In this document: positions 7,028 through 36,195 of the stretch, in pieces
Layout of the letters: each line of letters starts with the position of its first letter
Position numbering within the stretch: position 1 is the stretch's first letter
Notes under the pieces: model-generated
Told to the model about the DNA's origin: nothing
The model's database searches: none
Seen by the model: the letters and a program-made list of their open reading frames with translations, nothing else
Source: an uncultured Actinomycetota bacterium
Lineage (GTDB): Bacteria > Actinomycetota > Actinomycetes > Actinomycetales > Microbacteriaceae
Direction of reading: 5' to 3'
DNA: 64,000 nucleotides
Assembly: GCA_963756345.1 (NCBI GenBank)
Contig: CAVWNM010000001.1
Span: forward strand, 24,773 to 88,772
Made by a program: the position numbers and the translations under genes

Positions 7028-7976
7028 ATGACCGTTGCGCCAATGCGGCTCGCCTCGAAGGGGGGCTCGGCTCGCCGGGTCCCCCTTCGGGTGGTCGTCC
7101 TCTTCATCCTTCCCGCCTTCGCTCTGTTCGCGGTCTTCCTCCTCTTTCCCCTACTGCAGGCGGTGAGCTACAGCTTCTTCGATTGGAAGGGGACGCGTCA
7201 GCAGGGCTTCATCGGAATTGACAACTACATAAGGCTGTTCACAGATCTGCCCTTCTCTGAGCAGATTCCGAGAGCACTCGGGCACAACCTCCTCTTCTTC
7301 GCCGGAACCGTTGTGCTTCAGAACAGCATCGGACTCTTCCTGGCCGTCCAGCTCCAGCGCTTTCAAGCGGATGCGGCGCCTGTTCCAGACGCTGTACACC
7401 ACCCCGTACCTGGTCAGCCCGCTTGTCGTCGGCTACCTGTGGAGCCTGCTGCTCTCGCCGCAATTCGGGCTGGTCAACGAAGCTCTCCGGGTCGTGGGCC
7501 TGGACGCGCTCGCCCTGCCCTGGCTCGGCGACCCGACGCTCGCACTGCCCGTCCTCATCCTGATCAGCGTCTGGCAATGGATGGGATTCCCCGTTCTGCT
7601 CTATGGCGCAGCCCTGGGAGGGCTTCCCGTCGAGTTGAACGACGCTGCCGCCATCGACGGAGCGAACGGATGGAAGCGGTTCAGGTACGTGACGGGGCCG
7701 ATGCTGACACCCGTCATCGGTACGGTGTCGATCCTGACCTTCATCTCGAGCATGGAGGTGTTCACCCTCGCGTACGCGGTGGGAGGCTCCACGGGCTCGC
7801 CCGCCGGCGCAACAGACGTCTTGAGCCTGCTGTTCTATCGGGTCTCGTTCCAATCTGGCCTCATCGATGCGCTCGGACTCTCGTCAGCGCTGGCGACCCT
7901 GATGCTCATCTTCATCTTCGGCGGCGCCGTGCTCGCCACCCGACTGCTTGCTCGACAAGAGCGGAAACTCTCATGA
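7028..7976 (+). CDS. carbohydrate ABC transporter permease (MalF/UgpA-like), apparent frameshift near 7355-7375
   Basis: N-terminal TM segments are in ORF 7028.. . The body is in ORF 7311..7976 (FQTLYTTPYLVSPLVVGYLW ... EAA-loop region DAAAIDGANGWKRFRYVT). The two frames join only with a 1-nt shift. Confidence 0.75.
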
Positions 7977-10404: not shown

Positions 10405-12198
10405 ATGACGCAGAGCAACGCGAAGCGGTTGCGGAGCAACCAGTTCTACAGTTCCAACACGATGATCTCCGTCATCCGTAACGGGCATATGCACTCCCTC
10501 GGGTTGCCCGAGGGCGCGCTGAGGTCGGGGAAGCCGGTTATCGGCATCGCGAACAGCGCGTCGGATCTAGCCCCGTGCAACGCACACCTGAGCGACCTTG
10601 CGGAGTCTGTGAAGCGGGGCGTTCTTGATGCGGGCGGTATTCCGCTGGTGTTCCCGACGATCAGTCTCGGCGAGACGAATATGGCACCGACGACCATGCT
10701 CTTCCGGAACCTCATGAGCATGGACGTCGAGGAGATGATCCGGGCCAGTCCGATCGACGGAGTGGTACTGCTCGGAGGTTGTGACAAGACCGCGCCGGCG
10801 CAGCTCATGGGGGCGGCGAGTGTGGACATCCCCACCCTGGTTGTTACCGGCGGACCGATGCTCACCAGCCGATTCAGGGGCAAACCGCTGGGCACCGGCA
10901 CCACGGCGTCGAAGATGGCTGACCAGGTGCGAACCGGCGAGATCACGCCCGGTGAGTTCTTCGCTACTGAAGTTTGTTACGCCCGGAGCGCTGGCCACTG
11001 CGCCGTGATGGGGACGGCGTCGACCATGGGCAGCACGATCGAGGCTCTCGGCATGCAGCTCCCGGGCACCTCTTCGATTCCCGCCCCCGAGACGGGCAGG
11101 CGGCTCGCGGCGCATGAGGCAGGCCGACGCATCGTGGACATGGTCGCCGAAGACCTGCGACCGTCCACGATCATGACCCGAGCTGCCTTCGAGAACGCGA
11201 TCAAAGTGAGTGCGGCACTCAACGGATCGACCAACGCGGTGCTGCATCTCTTGGCGATCGCGGGGAGGGTCGGAGTCGAGCTGTCTCTCGACGATTTCGA
11301 CCGGTGGGGCAGGGACATCCCTCTCCTGGCGAACCTGCAACCCACCGGAACGTACTTCATGGAGGACTTCCATCACGCCGGCGGCCTGCCGGCGCTGATG
11401 GCCCGTCTCACAGATCACCTCAATCTCGACGCAATCACTGTGAGCGGCTCGACGGTCGGCGAGAACCTCGCCTCGGCCGAGTGCTACGACGATGATGTGA
11501 TCCGGACCGTTGAGACCGCGTTGGGAACCGGCTTCGGCACTGCCGTGCTTCGGGGCAACCTGGCCCCACAGGGCGCTGTAATCAAACAGGCGACCGCGAG
11601 CGAGTCGCTGATGGTTCACCGTGGGAGAGCGGTCGTCTTCGATTCCATCCGCGACTGCCAGCTGCACATCGATGACATCGACCTCGACATCGATGCGACG
11701 TCGGTTCTCGTGGTGAGAAACGCGGGACCGGCTGGGTACCCGGGGATGCCCGAGGTAGGAAAGCTCCCGATCCCGCGGAAGCTGCTGGCCGCTGGAGTGA
11801 CCGACATGGTGCGCATATCGGATGCCCGAATCAGCGGCACGTCGTTCGGTACCGTCATCGTGCATGTCGCACCTGAGGCAGCCAAGGGCGGGCCGATCGC
11901 GCTAGTTCGTAACGGCGATGTCATCAGTCTCGACATCCCGAACCGCAGCCTTGTGCTGGAGGTGGATGAAGTCGAGCTCGAGAGCCGCAGAGCGCTCCTT
12001 GCCTCTGAGGAGGTGCGGTTCGAGCGCGGCTATGCGCGCCTGTACGTGGATCACGTTCTGCAGGCCGACCGCGGTGCCGATTTTGACTTCCTGGTGGGCA
12101 GTAGCGGGCCCGATTTCACCGGGGGAGACCCCCACCTCCCGCCTGACGAGAACGAATTGCTGCGACCAGCCTTCTCAGCGGCGGAGGCGACAGCATGA
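10405..12198 (+). CDS. IlvD/EDD-family sugar-acid dehydratase (arabinonate/galactonate/xylonate dehydratase-like)
   Basis: IlvD/EDD-family motifs (CNAHL, GGCDKTAPA, SGTSFG). About 598 aa from ATG 10405. Substrate is not assignable from sequence alone. Confidence 0.8.
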   Translation: MTQSNAKRLRSNQFYSSNTMISVIRNGHMHSLGLPEGALRSGKPVIGIANSASDLAPCNAHLSDLAESVKRGVLDAGGIPLVFPTISLGETNMAPTTMLFRNLMSMDVEEMIRASPIDGVVLLGGCDKTAPAQLMGAASVDIPTLVVTGGPMLTSRFRGKPLGTGTTASKMADQVRTGEITPGEFFATEVCYARSAGHCAVMGTASTMGSTIEALGMQLPGTSSIPAPETGRRLAAHEAGRRIVDMVAEDLRPSTIMTRAAFENAIKVSAALNGSTNAVLHLLAIAGRVGVELSLDDFDRWGRDIPLLANLQPTGTYFMEDFHHAGGLPALMARLTDHLNLDAITVSGSTVGENLASAECYDDDVIRTVETALGTGFGTAVLRGNLAPQGAVIKQATASESLMVHRGRAVVFDSIRDCQLHIDDIDLDIDATSVLVVRNAGPAGYPGMPEVGKLPIPRKLLAAGVTDMVRISDARISGTSFGTVIVHVAPEAAKGGPIALVRNGDVISLDIPNRSLVLEVDEVELESRRALLASEEVRFERGYARLYVDHVLQADRGADFDFLVGSSGPDFTGGDPHLPPDENELLRPAFSAAEATA

Positions 12199-17929: not shown

Positions 17930-18723
17930 GTGTCACCGGCTTCGACATCATCGTCGGTGCCGGGCAGTCAAATGCTTTGCAATCCGACGAGCCGATTCTC
18001 GGAGAGCGCGTAGTGGATGCTCGGGTGCACATCTGGGAGGGTGAGACCAGTCGTGTGGTCGAGTCGAGCGAGACCTACCTGCTGCCCGAGTTCGCGAGGG
18101 AATACGTTCGGACGCTCGCACCCGATCGACGAGTGCTGCTTGTGTCTGCCGCCGAAGGCGCGACGGGCTTCACGACGTCATCACTGGATCCTTGCCCACC
18201 GGGCTACAAGCCGGGGGTGGGCACGTGGGATCGCGAGCTGGTCGGTGACCCGGTGAATCTGTATGGTCGGCTCGTCGACCGCGCTACAAACGCTGTGCAG
18301 TCGAACGCAGGATCGCGCCTTGTCTGCCTTCTGTGGTCGCAGGGCGAATCGGATTGCATTCGGGAGCCTTTTCTCGATGAACGGGAGTACGCCGCTCGCC
18401 TTGATGACTTGATCGTGACGTTTCGCGCCGACGTGGGCGTGCCGGATCTCCCGGTGATCGTCGGGTCGATGGTTCCTGAGTGGTACCGGGAGACAGTCGA
18501 GCGACGCAGTATCGCGACAGCGCTCGAGGAAACCCCCTTCCGGCTGCCCTTCGTTTCCTACGTGTGGGGGCCTTCGGGTCTCCCGAAAGCGAATGAGCCG
18601 ATCCATTGGGCCACCGCGGCCCAACAGGTCCGCGGCAAGGAGATGGCCACATCGGGCCTCGGAGAAGCGATTAGCAACACTGAGGCCGTCCGCTATCGTG
18701 TGGGTCGTCATGCCCAGGCTTGA
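17914..18723 (+). CDS. SASA-family carbohydrate esterase (sialate O-acetylesterase-like SGNH hydrolase)
   Basis: GQSNA nucleophile motif near the N-terminus (IVGAGQSNALQ), characteristic of the DUF303/SASA esterase family. Confidence 0.65.
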   Translation: MASAVSVTGFDIIVGAGQSNALQSDEPILGERVVDARVHIWEGETSRVVESSETYLLPEFAREYVRTLAPDRRVLLVSAAEGATGFTTSSLDPCPPGYKPGVGTWDRELVGDPVNLYGRLVDRATNAVQSNAGSRLVCLLWSQGESDCIREPFLDEREYAARLDDLIVTFRADVGVPDLPVIVGSMVPEWYRETVERRSIATALEETPFRLPFVSYVWGPSGLPKANEPIHWATAAQQVRGKEMATSGLGEAISNTEAVRYRVGRHAQA

Positions 18724-30255: not shown

Positions 30256-31027
30256 ATGACTGACCTGAGCCTGCGGATGCCCAACACGCGACTTCGGGCG
30301 GTTCTGAACCTCGGAATCAGGCGCGTTCCTGCACCGGTCCTGCCGACGTCTCTCGCTGACCCAGAGCTGTTTGCTGACTGGGATGACGAAGCGGAGCTGA
30401 GCGATCTGCATGTCGAGTTCGAGGATGGGCAGCTTGCACCTCGAGACGACCAGCGCCGGAGTCAGCCATCATTTCCACACCGCGACTGGTGAGCATCGCG
30501 ACTCAAGCCCGTGGTCGTCCGACGACACTGCCGCACTGCTGCGTTGGGCGACCGCACTGGCGAACGACTTCCACGCGCTGCTGCCGGGGCTGCTCGACGA
30601 CATCACCCAGGCGGCAGCCTGGCACGACTCGGGGTTTGACCTCTACATCTGCGAGGTGGAGGAGCCTGTCCAGCTTGAGTTGCTGGAGATCGAGGTCGAG
30701 GGTGAACTGATGACCCTGCCCTGGCTTGGCGCCGGCAGCGTCTCCCACGACCACATCGACGGCGAGAATCATCCCATCGCGCTTGCCTGGGGCCCGGAAG
30801 AATCCGAACCGGATCGGCCGATCGCCGAAGCCTGGACCGACCCCCAGACCGGGTCACCGCAATCCAGGGCCCTGCCCGGAGTGGACTGGGATGAAATCGG
30901 ATTGCCCGCCGACGAGGTGCTGCCCTGGCTGGAAGGTATCTACCTCAATCACCACGTGATCCCGGATGCGGAGGGCACCCTCCTGAATGCCGTTCTGCGG
31001 CGACTCGGCGGCCTCGACCCGTCGTAG
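30256..31027 (+). CDS. acidic hypothetical protein, possibly frameshifted near 30425-30440
   Basis: ORFs 30256..30492 and 30410..31027 overlap in different frames. Both have coding-like acidic composition. The call may be a single gene or a gene starting at ATG 30425. Confidence 0.35.
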
Positions 31028-31133: not shown

Positions 31134-32682
31134 GTGTTTTCCCCAGAGCAAGTGACGAACGCCATATTCGTGGGGGCCATCGTCCTCGTAGTGCTCATCG
31201 TGGTGATCGTGCTGCTGCGGGGCATCAAGGTCGCACGGCCCGACGAAGCGATCATCGTGACCTCGCGGCAGAAAGCCCTGAAAAAGGGCGAGGCGGAAAC
31301 CGAGAATGCCGGCCAGAAGGTCGTCTTCGGATCGCGCGTCTTCGTGAAGCCAATCGTCGAGGCATATTTCAAGCTCAGCCTGCGCAGCCGGCAACTGAAC
31401 GTGCAGGCCACGGCGCAGACCCGCGACGCCATCACCATTCGTGTGAACGCTGTCGCCGTCGTGAAGGTTGGTGGATCCGAGTCGATGGTTCGCGCCGCCG
31501 CCCAACGATTCCTCAACCAGCAGGATCAGATCGAAACATCCACCGAAGAAGTGCTCAGCGGATCGGTGAGATCGATCGTCGGTCAGCTCACCGTCACCGA
31601 GATCATCACCAACCGCTCCGCGCTGCAGGGCCAGGTGCTCGAGGCCGTACGCGAGTCGCTCGATGTGCAGGGCCTGACCATTGACACCCTCCAGATCAAG
31701 GAGATCGACGACGACAACGGTTACATTCGCGACCTTGGTCGCGCGGAGGCAGCTCGTGTGAAGCAGGTCGCAGAGATCGCCGAATCGGTGTCTCGACAGG
31801 CGTCGGAGGAAGCCAGAATTTCTGCAGACCAGGCGGTCGCGGAATCGCAGCGGCGGCTTGACCTGCGAAACGCGGAGATCCAGAAAGAAACCGACAAAGC
31901 ACGTGCCGAGGCTGCAGCCGCGGCCCCTCTCGCCGAAGCGATCGCACAGCAGGAGGTTGTGTCGCAACAGGAGGTGACCGCCGGAAAGCGTGTTGGCCTT
32001 CGCAAGCAGGAACTCGATGCCGAGATTCGCGCCGTCGCCGACGCCCAGGCCTATTCCATTTCGAAGAAGGCCGAAGCGGATGCCGTCGCCTCTGTTGCGG
32101 CGGCCAACGCCGACCGCGACTCGCGTCGCTCGAGTGCGGAAGCCGTCGAGGCCGAGGGTGTCGCCGAGCGTAACCGTCGTCGAAGCGCTGCAGAGGCCGT
32201 TGAGGCCGAGGGGCTTTCCGAGAAGAGTCGTCGCATCGCGGCTTCTGAGGCTCTGCAGGCCGAGGGGGAGGCTGAAGCCGCCTCGATCCGCGCCCGGGGT
32301 AACGCAGAGGCGGAGGCCACGCAGAGCGCGAGCCGAAGCACTCGAACAGGGCGCCAGCGACCTCCTGCGGCAGCAGGTCATCGCCCAGCTGCCCGCGATC
32401 GTGCGAGCGGCATCCGAACCTCTCGCCTCGATCTCCAACATGACGGTGATCTCGTCGGACGGGAAAGGATCGGAGCAGGTCGGCCAAAACGTGGCCACCC
32501 AACTGACGACGGTGAACCAGATTCTGAAAGACCTCGTCGGCATCGACATCTCCGACATCATCACCGGCCGGATGACGGGCGAAGCCATCGGGAAGGGTCT
32601 CGCCGGCAACCAGTCGGCAGCCGCAGCGACAACCGTGCCATCGCGCAGTGCCCAGGCGAAGAACCCAACGCCCGAATCGTAG
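31134..32682 (+). CDS. flotillin / SPFH (band-7) family protein, apparent frameshift near 32325-32345
   Basis: N-terminal TM segment (AIFVGAIVLVVLIVVIVLL). SPFH domain, then a long Ala/Glu-rich coiled coil in ORF 30987..32867. The conserved flotillin C-terminus (LPAIVRAASEPLASISNMTVISSDG) is in ORF 31990..32682. GTG 31134 or TTG 31116 start. Confidence 0.75.
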
Positions 32683-32698: not shown

Positions 32699-33038
32699 TC
32701 AGTTTGTACGCGGGGGAGCGCTGGGCGTCGGCGGCTCCGTCGGCGCAGTCGGCCCGGAGTTCTCTTCCTGCACCCTTTGCACCAGCGACTTCCACGGGCC
32801 GGTCAGTGATGATTCCGGCACCGTAGCCGCGCGACGTTTGCGTGGAGCGCGCACCGTGATCACGTAAATGAAGCGATCGCGAGACTTCTCGTCCCGAGCG
32901 ACCTCCCGCCAGGGGCAGGCGTTGACGAGTTCGATGAGATCGTCAGCCTCATCGACCGCCGACGACACGCGACCACCGGCGGGTGAGCCCCGCGAAGCCG
33001 CCGGATCGCACGACGGTGATGGTCAGCTCAGGAGGCAT
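32699..33038 (-). CDS. emfourin-like protein (putative protein inhibitor of protealysin-like M4 proteases), apparent frameshift near 32955-32970
   Basis: ATG 33038 lies 5 nt after the protease stop. N-terminal MPPELTITVVRSGGFAGLTRR, then in the other frame ...DEADDLIELVNACPWREVA...SRDRFIYVITV...TVPESSLTGPWKSLVQRVQEE. The pattern recalls emfourin (SREGGFAYIPK ... GDQRYFRI ... LLIPE). Confidence 0.45.
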
Positions 33039-33043
33039 CGTGC

Positions 33044-34120
33044 TCAACCGTCCCTTGCCAACGTGGGGTCGGCGATTGTGCCAATGCCAACGCCGGCCCA
33101 GCCTCCGCGCACTGCAGTCACCTCGGGTGAGCATTGCACCGAAACGGGCGGTGGCGGCCGCGACCGTCGCCGCGGCGAACGCCGAAAAGTCCGCGCGGGC
33201 AGTGAGGATCGGGCCGGTGATCGTGTCGTACCAGATTTGGCCAGCCCGCTCCCAGGCGTTGCCGCCGAGCGCTTCGGCCACGAGATAGAACGCACGATTG
33301 GGGATCCCGGAATTGATGTGGACACCGCCGCTGTCTTCATCCGTGTAGACGTAGTCGTCGAAGTGCGCGGGCTGCGGATCCTTGCCGAGGATGTCGTCGT
33401 CGTACGCGGTGCCGGGCGCCTTGAGCGAGCGAAGCGCCGAGCCTTCGACTTCGTCGGTGAAGATGCCCTCGCCGATCAGCCAGCTGGCATCCTCCACGGA
33501 CTGACCGCGGCGAATGCTGCTCGACCAGTGCGCCGAAGACGTCAGACATCGATTCGTTGAGGGCCCCCGACTGGTCGCGGTACACGAGACCGGCGCTGAA
33601 CTGCGTCACACCGTGAGCGAGCTCATGCCCGATGACGGACAAGGGAAGCCGTGAACCGGGAGAAGATCTCGCCATCACCGTCGCCGAACACCATGCGTTC
33701 GCCATCCCAGAAGGCGTTGTCATACAGCCGGCCGTAGTGAACGGTCGCGTCGAGGGGGAGGCCAGCACCGTCGATCGAATTGCGCCCATACGCCTGGGAG
33801 AACAGGTCAAACGTGGCGCCGAGTCCGTCATAGGCCTCATCGGCGGCAAGATCGCCTACGGGAGGTTCGCTCTCCCGGCGAACCACGGTGCCGGGCAGCG
33901 ATTCGGTGGAGCCGGCATCAAAAATCGTGCGGTTGGGCGCATCGACCAGAGTTGCGACGAGATCCTGATTGTCGCCAAAACTCAGGTCGAAGCGCACCGA
34001 CCGGATTGCCCTATCGTGCTCGAGTGCGACGCGTGCGGCACGTGCAGCCACCGCGAACTTCGCGTCATCACACCGCGCGATGCGTCTCAGCAGGTACGGG
34101 GGAACGATTCCGTGAGTCAT
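33044..34120 (-). CDS. M4 (thermolysin) family zinc metalloprotease, protealysin-like, with at least 3 apparent frameshifts
   Basis: Pieces lie in four ORFs/frames: a short propeptide with PPL-type motif ([15 protein letters not shown]; 33623..34120); HEXXH...E zinc site ([10 protein letters not shown] ... NESMSDVFG; 33337..33849); C-terminal domain ([16 protein letters not shown]; 32949..33497); and the terminal WAGVGIG motif in ORF 33044..33340. Confidence 0.75.
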
Positions 34121-34152
34121 GATCCGAGCATGCCCCGTGCCACCGACGGAGA

Positions 34153-34263
34153 TTAGTCCTTGCGCTTGCTGGCGGCCTTGTCCTTCTTGTCAGCGCGCTT
34201 CTCTTTCAGAGACTTGCTGGCTGCGGTCTTGGCTGTGGTTTTCTTCGGTGACTTATCGGCCAT
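34153..34263 (-). CDS. 36-aa Lys/Ala-rich highly basic small protein (MADKSPKKTTAKTAASKSLKEKRADKKDKAASKRKD)
   Basis: Not in the ORF track (below the length cut-off). ATG 34263 is preceded by an AGGAGG ribosome-binding site at 7-nt spacing. Same strand, 33 bp upstream of the M4 protease gene. Confidence 0.5.
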   Translation of the reverse strand: MADKSPKKTTAKTAASKSLKEKRADKKDKAASKRKD

Positions 34264-34345
34264 GACGTTATCCTCCTGTGAGCCGGGTGGCTCGTCTCAC
34301 GAGCGTACCCCGCCAGCGGGGTGTGGTCACGCCTTCGACGAGGGG

Positions 34346-35245
34346 TCAGGCCGACTGCCGGTCTCGCTCGATACGGGCTATTCGTGCGCGTGCCGCATCC
34401 TCACTGGTGGAGGAAGTGCCAAGCAGTCTGCCGACGGCGCCCAGTACCACGCCCGTCGCCCAGATCACCGGCAGCGGAGAGCGGCGAAGCCCGAGCATCC
34501 TGCGGTGTTCTTCTGGCAATGACGCCACGGCTCCGGCAAACATCACCCGATAGGCGGGTCTCATGGAGCGACGAATCGGGGGATTCCTGATGAATTTCAC
34601 CGCCTCCAGTACGCGTTCATCGCTCTTGAGCACGGGACGAAAGCCCGCGATCTGCGCTTTCAGCTCCGCTCGGGATCGAGGTGGATGCTCGACTCCCACG
34701 AGTTCGCCCGCCGCCGCCCACTCACTCACGTAACGATCGGCGCCTCCGGGGATGGGGCCTCCCCACAGTTCATGGCACCCGAGGAATGCGTCGGTAAACA
34801 CGGCGTGCACCCAGGCCAGCAGTTCCTGGTCGCCTGCCGTGTACGGTCGCTCGACATTCTGGGCGTCGATGTAGGTTCCCGCGACTCTGTCGTGATAGCG
34901 GCCGACCCTCGCCGACTCGAGTCTTGCCTGTTCGGTACTGGCGAAGGTAACGGTGATGAGCCATTGGATGGTGCCCGACAGTCGGCCCAGCGGGTCTTCC
35001 TTGTAGCGCGACCAATCGTGCACGCCCGCCATCGCCCCGGGGTGCAGAGTCTGCATGAGCAGGGCCCTGATCCCCGCGACCATGGTCGCCATTCCTCCGT
35101 GCACGATCCACGCGGCCGAGTCCACGCCGAAGAAGCCGGCGTCATCGCCGAGTTCGATTCGGCTGACCCACTGCGGGCGACCGGAGCTCTCGCCAGACAG
35201 TGTCGTCAGCAGGTGCGAGCGCCACGTGTCCGAGAATCTGCTCAT
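34346..35245 (-). CDS. MpaB/DUF2236-family oxygenase
   Basis: 299-aa sequence with DUF2236-type motifs. Confidence 0.6.
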   Translation of the reverse strand: MSRFSDTWRSHLLTTLSGESSGRPQWVSRIELGDDAGFFGVDSAAWIVHGGMATMVAGIRALLMQTLHPGAMAGVHDWSRYKEDPLGRLSGTIQWLITVTFASTEQARLESARVGRYHDRVAGTYIDAQNVERPYTAGDQELLAWVHAVFTDAFLGCHELWGGPIPGGADRYVSEWAAAGELVGVEHPPRSRAELKAQIAGFRPVLKSDERVLEAVKFIRNPPIRRSMRPAYRVMFAGAVASLPEEHRRMLGLRRSPLPVIWATGVVLGAVGRLLGTSSTSEDAARARIARIERDRQSA

Positions 35246-36110: not shown

Positions 36111-36195
36111 GACTTAAACGGTAGCCCGTCGTCCAAATCGGCGGGGTATGCGACACGTCTCATCCATTACTGTGGTCTGTAGGGGAGGACTGCTA

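Follow-up and report, generated by a model that had tools for sequence, protein, structure and literature searches.

What do the three co-directional, frame-shifted open reading frames (ORFs) on the minus strand at 32699-34263 of this actinobacterial DNA encode? In the window analysed here, that is, the whole stretch of 64,000 nt whose positions serve as coordinates throughout, they are predicted to comprise the genes for a protealysin-like M4 zinc metalloprotease and an emfourin-family M4 peptidase inhibitor, directly preceded by a small gene for a Lys-rich microprotein (the micro-ORF). Taking the gene identities, their order and spacing, the conservation of the pair and the independence of the microprotein gene together, we hold it probable, at roughly 85%, that a two-gene protease/emfourin cassette of a known kind sits here behind an independent microprotein gene, with both cassette genes intact in the organism and their frameshifts being errors.

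The arrangement of the locus had been outlined in an earlier sequence-only reading, and three co-directional minus-strand genes were indeed found next to an MpaB gene, each where it had been placed and with all quoted motifs present. The micro-ORF (34153..34263, minus strand) encodes 36 residues (MADKSPKKTTAKTAASKSLKEKRADKKDKAASKRKD), including 12 Lys and 2 Arg for a net charge of about +9, and the good ribosome-binding site ascribed to it is a Shine-Dalgarno (SD) sequence, AGGAGG, at 34277..34272, 8 nt ahead of the start codon. The protease gene follows at 33044..34120 on the same strand. Its start (34120) lies 32 nt past the micro-ORF stop, so that the proposed closeness of the two genes stands and the proposed distance of 33 bp does not. 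Its reading is spread over four frame pieces down to a TGA stop at 33046..33044 and yields a protein of 357 aa once three single-base insertions are removed. The emfourin gene (32699..33038, minus strand) starts with an ATG at 33038, exactly the predicted 5 nt past the protease stop, lies in two frame pieces, and encodes 112 aa after the removal of one single-base insertion, in keeping with the length of about 112 aa first suggested. Compared with the orthologues, the extra bases are found at ~33641, ~33509 and ~33131 in the protease and at ~32969 in emfourin, which matches the count of about four frameshifts given before. Overall, the sequence-only reading is supported in part: its gene assignments and its preference for assembly indels over decay agree with the present analysis, whereas its placement of the micro-ORF in a protealysin operon does not.

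The protease is recognizable even without frame repair, the raw fragments matching Pfam Peptidase_M4 (7e-19) and Peptidase_M4_C (1e-33) well past chance; the repaired protein scores over the cut-off with both (5.7e-27 and 1.5e-54, respectively). Proteases of family M4 are marked by a catalytic and an alpha-helical domain, a HEXXH motif, a Glu ligand in NExxSD and a catalytic His in GGVHxNSGI. In the repaired protein, the zinc-site features can be read directly as HELAH at 33627..33613 and an intact GALNESMSD, so that with both Pfam domains and the motifs present it belongs to peptidase family M4. At least 8,000 homologues were recovered with the repaired protease; the best 120 are 66-84% identical, and those among them with a named source all come from genera of Microbacteriaceae. 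An M4 metallopeptidase of Salinibacterium sp. G-O1 is 84% identical and of equal length.

Within the M4 family, the protealysin-like subgroup is distinguished by an N-terminal propeptide of about 50 aa with a PPL motif, which replaces the FTP/PepSY domains. The PPL motif in this short propeptide has been named the defining criterion for protealysin-like proteases (PMC6778150). Our protease finds its top match among the sequences of the PDB in the protealysin precursor 2vqx_A (E 3.4e-107, 362 bits), in an alignment of query residues 4-345 with chain residues 8-340 that starts inside the propeptide and pairs the PPL-bearing segment of the window protein with SVIPPYMLRRI of 2vqx_A. Bacillolysin, the second-best family, reaches 188 bits over the mature domain only, and no FTP or PepSY propeptide domain appeared in a Pfam scan of the repaired protein. 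As judged by eye, its N-terminus has no hydrophobic core and no stretch resembling a signal peptide. Because of the PPL propeptide and the wide lead of 2vqx_A over other characterized M4 enzymes, the protease can be assigned on sequence grounds to the protealysin-like subgroup, as had been proposed.

For the inhibitor, the larger of the raw fragments by itself already reaches 30.4 bits with the Pfam Emfourin model (cut-off 27), and the repaired 112-residue protein scores 46 bits with this model (PF20242; E 7.4e-12), in an alignment spanning model positions 2-91 of 91. Thus, Peptidase_M4, Peptidase_M4_C and Emfourin, the profiles with which the sequence-only reading had proposed to check its assignments, are all above cut-off. 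PF20242 was found in each of the 24 emfourin homologues recovered; orthologues are 81-97% identical, that of G-O1 81%, and UniRef and NCBI label several homologues, the G-O1 orthologue among them, as 'protealysin inhibitor emfourin'. The gene lies directly downstream of and co-directional with the protease gene across the 5-nt gap, as it does in the related loci L001, L007 and L010. Emfourin reportedly has a nuclear magnetic resonance structure, by Bozin et al. The Serratia M4in structure 6zyg was recovered neither from the PDB sequences, with a single query or a 21-sequence profile, nor by Foldseek, so that structural support is weak and the predicted membership in the emfourin family draws chiefly on the Pfam model and the gene position. 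The sole PDB match of the 21-sequence profile, a designed Kelch-like protein, was rejected as a spurious repeat match.

How does the pair compare to known systems? In the passages of PMC9505478 that bear on Serratia, emfourin, encoded in one operon with protealysin, is described as binding the active-site region 1:1 (citing Chukhontseva et al. 2021), and protealysin as cutting its substrates only when no emfourin is present. The pln-m4in operon of Serratia proteamaculans resembles the window pair in being bicistronic and co-directional, with the protease preceding the inhibitor, in the full-length alignment of the proteases including the PPL propeptide, in the end-to-end match of the window inhibitor to the Emfourin model, and in the lack, judged by eye, of an obvious signal peptide in either protein. 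Unlike it, the window system belongs to an actinobacterium of the Microbacteriaceae, has a Pro-rich C-terminal tail, and follows directly behind an unrelated microprotein gene. With thermolysin, bacillolysin, aureolysin and pseudolysin, the window protease shares the catalytic and helical domains and the HEXXH...NExxSD zinc site. These classical thermolysin-like enzymes, however, are secreted and carry long FTP/PepSY-type propeptides, and they align only from residue 66 onward, at no more than 188 bits, compared to 362 for protealysin. Closest is the locus of Salinibacterium sp. G-O1 (GCA_030063305.1, JASISV010000002.1), where the order S4, micro-ORF, M4, emfourin, flotillin, a gene for a 256-aa hypothetical protein and DEAD is the same and where protease, emfourin and micro-ORF are 84%, 81% and 100% identical to those of the window; it differs in having no MpaB gene between S4 and the micro-ORF and no frameshifts, and its micro-ORF is unannotated. 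A literature search on actinobacterial protealysin-like systems returned nothing relevant. The claim that such an actinobacterial pair is barely studied cannot be upheld for it as an object of annotation: it represents a described system, with a Pfam family and named orthologues already public, and this copy extends the Microbacteriaceae catalogue only.

The frameshifts most likely represent technical errors, because single-base insertions occur throughout the window, indispensable genes are broken along with the protease pair, the substitution pattern of the pair is normal, and a close relative lacks three of the insertions. In a comparison with 21 kb of the G-O1 genome, at 84-86% DNA identity, we found ten coding frameshifts between 23.6 and 44.5 kb (23793, 25079, 30433, 32321, 32969, 33131, 33509, 33641, 40100 and 42005), each of them +1 in the window, together with an intergenic single-base insertion at 36194. 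A codon-usage frame tracker, run across the whole window, recovered seven of these ten events and proposed seven more, six of them +1 and the seventh, in MurF, a 1-nt deletion. For five of the seven tracker-only events, Pfam was run on each of the two fragments; those at 2292 and 53676 were judged by eye from their translations. The fragments of MurF (61333) cover Mur_ligase_M positions 1-25 and 40-199, those of an FtsI-type transpeptidase (60268) domain positions 2-142 and 153-278; the two fragments of a ROK kinase (47299) match consecutive parts of a single domain, those of an ADH (50339) carry ADH_N and ADH_zinc_N, respectively, and for an ABC permease (7361) only one fragment has a domain match. 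Further broken genes in the window are two small ones and those for a Gfo/Idh oxidoreductase, a LysM protein, and pyruvate carboxylase, which is broken twice in a protein otherwise 93-97% identical to its orthologue. Outside the protease pair, the indels thus amount to 13 insertions, including the intergenic one at 36194, and the single deletion in murF, and across the window 16 of the 17 coding frameshifts are insertions (a binomial test for an even split gives P = 3e-4), at a rate of roughly one single-base insertion per 3-4 kb. No long homopolymers are present at the events whose sequence context was examined. Five further frame switches were rejected as frameshifts: that at 18694 is the boundary of two different genes, and at 12153, 14917, 17876 and 27483 genes simply overlap at their borders.

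The reading of an intact cassette has to be weighed against several observations. Four of the 17 frameshifts fall into the 1.42-kb protease/emfourin pair, compared to 0.3-0.44 expected; the nominal P of this local excess, 2.5e-4 to 1e-3, rises to about 0.01 when crudely corrected for 45 windows and is to be read knowing that the locus was chosen partly for its frameshifts and that errors can cluster. The excess could mean real decay. A decayed M4 gene in fact exists in a sister lineage, represented by contigs L003-L005, L008, L009 and L011 from several short-read metagenomes. On the side of the assignments, Pfam PLN_propep scores 17.8 bits on the protease, under its cut-off of 28.1, and on the side of function, we infer that the genes are co-transcribed and translationally coupled, that the products lie inside the cell and that emfourin inhibits the protease. 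All of these points count against the proposed reading.

The strongest alternative built on them is that protease and inhibitor are real pseudogenes in a lineage that is losing the cassette, with the frameshifts as genuine mutations. Besides the four events in 1.42 kb, it can invoke a total of six in 3.3 kb if the flotillin gene and the 256-aa hypothetical-protein gene (30256..31024, plus strand; frameshift at 30433) are included, the evident dispensability of a cassette that is absent from syntenic relatives, and the precedent of the sister lineage, whose M4 carries in-frame stops and a scrambled segment beside an intact emfourin. We nevertheless consider it improbable. The same type of single-base insertion also breaks the FtsI-type penicillin-binding protein (PBP) and, twice, pyruvate carboxylase, and murF is broken as well. 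Natural gene decay would be expected to proceed through mixed, mostly deletional indels, unlike the nearly uniform insertions seen here. Nonsense codons are absent from the repaired pair, and all of the catalytic motifs are preserved. The ratio of nonsynonymous to synonymous substitution rates (dN/dS) is 0.11 for the repaired M4 and 0.15 for the repaired emfourin, as between intact orthologues, which show 0.10-0.11 among themselves. Finally, L133, a 1-kb contig taken from a public run and sharing 94% identity with the window, covers three of the four sites, and none of the insertions there (33509, 33131 and 32969) occurs in it; its emfourin gene is intact, with a 112-aa product of 97% identity. 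With technical errors as the favoured cause, any 'pseudogene' call in this assembly is to be distrusted before polishing.

In related loci, the order micro-ORF, M4 and emfourin recurs together with the 5-nt gap. Judged from the loci compared, the protease and emfourin genes are present or absent together as one 1.4-kb cassette, flanked by the micro-ORF on one side and the convergent flotillin gene on the other, and the occurrence of this cassette at the site is limited to a narrow Salinibacterium-like subclade, consisting of the window, L001 (G-O1) and L002, L007, L010, Salinibacterium sp. CAN_S4 and the lineage with the decayed M4. In the latter, the M4 gene (3143-4219 in L003, 2114-3156 in L009) is 62-64% identical, has in-frame stops, and contains a scrambled segment of 45 residues across the start of the helical domain; it is a true pseudogene, which turns the intact emfourin next to it into an 'orphan' inhibitor. 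In L002, an intact emfourin ORF (MAAELTITVARSGGFAGLTR...) follows the protease at 7080-7412 and was not called as a gene; flotillin is deleted there. The protease end of the window (ADPTLARDG), with its stop 5 nt before the emfourin ATG, agrees with that of G-O1. In L133, the C-terminal tail of the protease is one base shorter (470-513; ~33070 in the window), and the protease end overlaps the emfourin start by 11 nt.

Does the micro-ORF belong to this cassette? An exhaustive profile search returned 17 representative relatives of the microprotein, most of them with spurious N-terminal extensions. A degenerate DNA pattern for MADKSPKK...KEKR, with a spacer of 30-39 nt allowed, matched at least 119 species-level genomes, among them those of the genera Cryobacterium, Rhodoglobus, Salinibacterium, Frigoribacterium, Glaciibacter, Glaciihabitans, Lacisediminihabitans, Leifsonia, Plantibacter, Okibacterium and Terrimesophilobacter and, beyond these, of Arthrobacter and many Acidimicrobiia. 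Among the 119 listed genomes, only one, that of G-O1, has an M4 gene downstream of the micro-ORF, and no neighbour is conserved, the largest neighbour cluster covering 16 of 119 loci. In the syntenic, Rhodoglobus-like loci L017, L032, L070 and L113, S4, (MpaB) and the micro-ORF are followed directly by the convergent flotillin gene, and L012 carries an identical micro-ORF without a protease. Since an M4 neighbour is so rare, no other neighbour is shared, and flotillin comes directly next in syntenic relatives, the micro-ORF is an independent gene and not the extra component of a protealysin operon for which it had been taken.

The opposing view, a functional tricistronic module in which the microprotein acts with the protease or the inhibitor as a chaperone, regulator or substrate decoy, draws on the co-directional arrangement with its tight spacing of 32 and 5 nt and no terminator, on the recurrence of this arrangement in nine of ten contexts carrying the identical 36-aa protein, and on the consecutive locus tags 405-407 in Salinibacterium sp. 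CAN_S4. We regard it as very unlikely, given that the micro-ORF is so widespread and so seldom followed by an M4 gene, that its neighbours vary, and that its sequence stays identical with or without the cassette, as in L012 and in the relatives with flotillin in its place. The best 120 protease homologues are in turn spread over many genera of Microbacteriaceae, a statement on taxonomic range only.

The micro-ORF itself bears the marks of translation, and its pattern of variation shows it to be a genuine gene for a small protein under strong constraint. In 12 loci, the window and 11 distinct loci of relatives, the 36-aa protein has one and the same sequence, next to proteases that share only 62-84% identity. 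Within the ORF, these 12 copies differ at 14 DNA sites, every one a synonymous third position, and also in the stop codon. The pattern match opens an ORF of 32-47 aa in each of the 119 listed genomes; there, the spacer is either 30 or 33 nt long, with indels in multiples of three, the entropy is 17.3 at third positions compared to 8.0 and 7.6 at the others, and an SD-like motif precedes 105 of the 119 copies. It is because of these synonymous-only substitutions, codon-wise indels, third-position variation and ribosome-binding sites that we consider the gene to be real, and its 'conserved-looking' character has been amply substantiated. That the ORF is instead untranslated, the conserved stretch being an RNA element or the leader of the downstream gene, would fit the very high conservation of the DNA and of 50 nt upstream as well as the low complexity of a protein without a match to a known family, but is hardly credible in view of the codon-wise variation across these genomes, an RNA fold predicted to be no better than that of shuffled sequences (z = 0.07), and the lack of an Rfam match for the micro-ORF DNA.

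The microprotein family follows the pattern MADKSPKK...K(S/T)LKEKR...K-rich; where annotated, its members are named 'hypothetical protein'. We found no curated family for it, neither in NCBIfam nor in Pfam, where the best match was at chance level (E 0.36). Gene callers often extend the microprotein N-terminally by error (46-96 aa; P0121-P0137) or miss it, as in G-O1. One cluster at 90% identity holds a 419-aa 'DNA repair exonuclease' from a gammaproteobacterium (P0187), probably a clustering artefact. Its charge, its strong ribosome-binding site and its broad conservation invite the guess that the microprotein is abundant and associated with nucleic acids or ribosomes. On balance, we favour by some measure the idea that the 36-aa ORF is the first member of an as yet undescribed family of highly basic microproteins across Actinomycetota, with a housekeeping-type role of its own (e.g. 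in nucleic acid or ribosome binding), whose strong promoter and leader may have been co-opted for a newly inserted cassette in the Salinibacterium-like subclade. This unnamed family is the sole mildly new element at the locus, and it makes a reasonable target for small-protein studies.

How might the cassette be expressed and controlled? Upstream of the micro-ORF lies a conserved 50-nt region (34264..34313, minus strand), which is nearly invariant in the 12 loci although these are otherwise only 73-86% identical to the window DNA. It contains a -10-like TACGCT at 34307..34302 and a hairpin, GAGCC-N4-GGCTC, at 34293..34280, the pairing of which is kept through a G-C to G-U change. A scan of the micro-ORF/protease region found no sigma-70 consensus promoter, and from the features named we infer a promoter and leader in this block. 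The same scan revealed no promoter or terminator in the 32-nt gap between micro-ORF and protease, which suggests that transcripts starting at the microprotein promoter and leader (34313..34264) probably read through into the cassette; the sole terminator-like match lies inside the protease gene and occurs at chance rate. Translation of emfourin is probably coupled to that of the protease, considering the gap of 5 nt. Going by homology, the protease would be produced as an inactive precursor inside the cell, a zymogen whose short propeptide is of the PPL type. Emfourin, by homology to Serratia M4in, would bind its active site 1:1 and block its activity within the producing cell for as long as the two stay together. 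In the Salinibacterium-like lineage, the cassette sits between the convergent flotillin gene and a microprotein gene that is independent and, on the proposed reading, older.

Two genes flank this arrangement. Downstream, the convergent flotillin/Band-7 gene (31134..32680, plus strand) carries one single-base insertion at ~32321 and accordingly has its halves in different frames, first frame 3 and then frame 1, as seen with tblastn; it is adjoined by the 256-aa hypothetical-protein gene. Upstream, an intact gene of the MpaB/Lcp type (34346..35245, minus strand; MPAB_Lcp_cat) lies outside the protease unit. Both the window and L003-L012 have it upstream of the micro-ORF, whereas L001 and L002 (5794-5858) lack it between the S4-domain gene and that ORF, so that a second presence/absence difference exists at this place. 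Further along, the segment 59275-62302 is part of a dcw (cell-division/cell-wall) cluster, with the gene for the FtsI-type PBP followed by that for MurF, which marks the window as a core chromosomal region.

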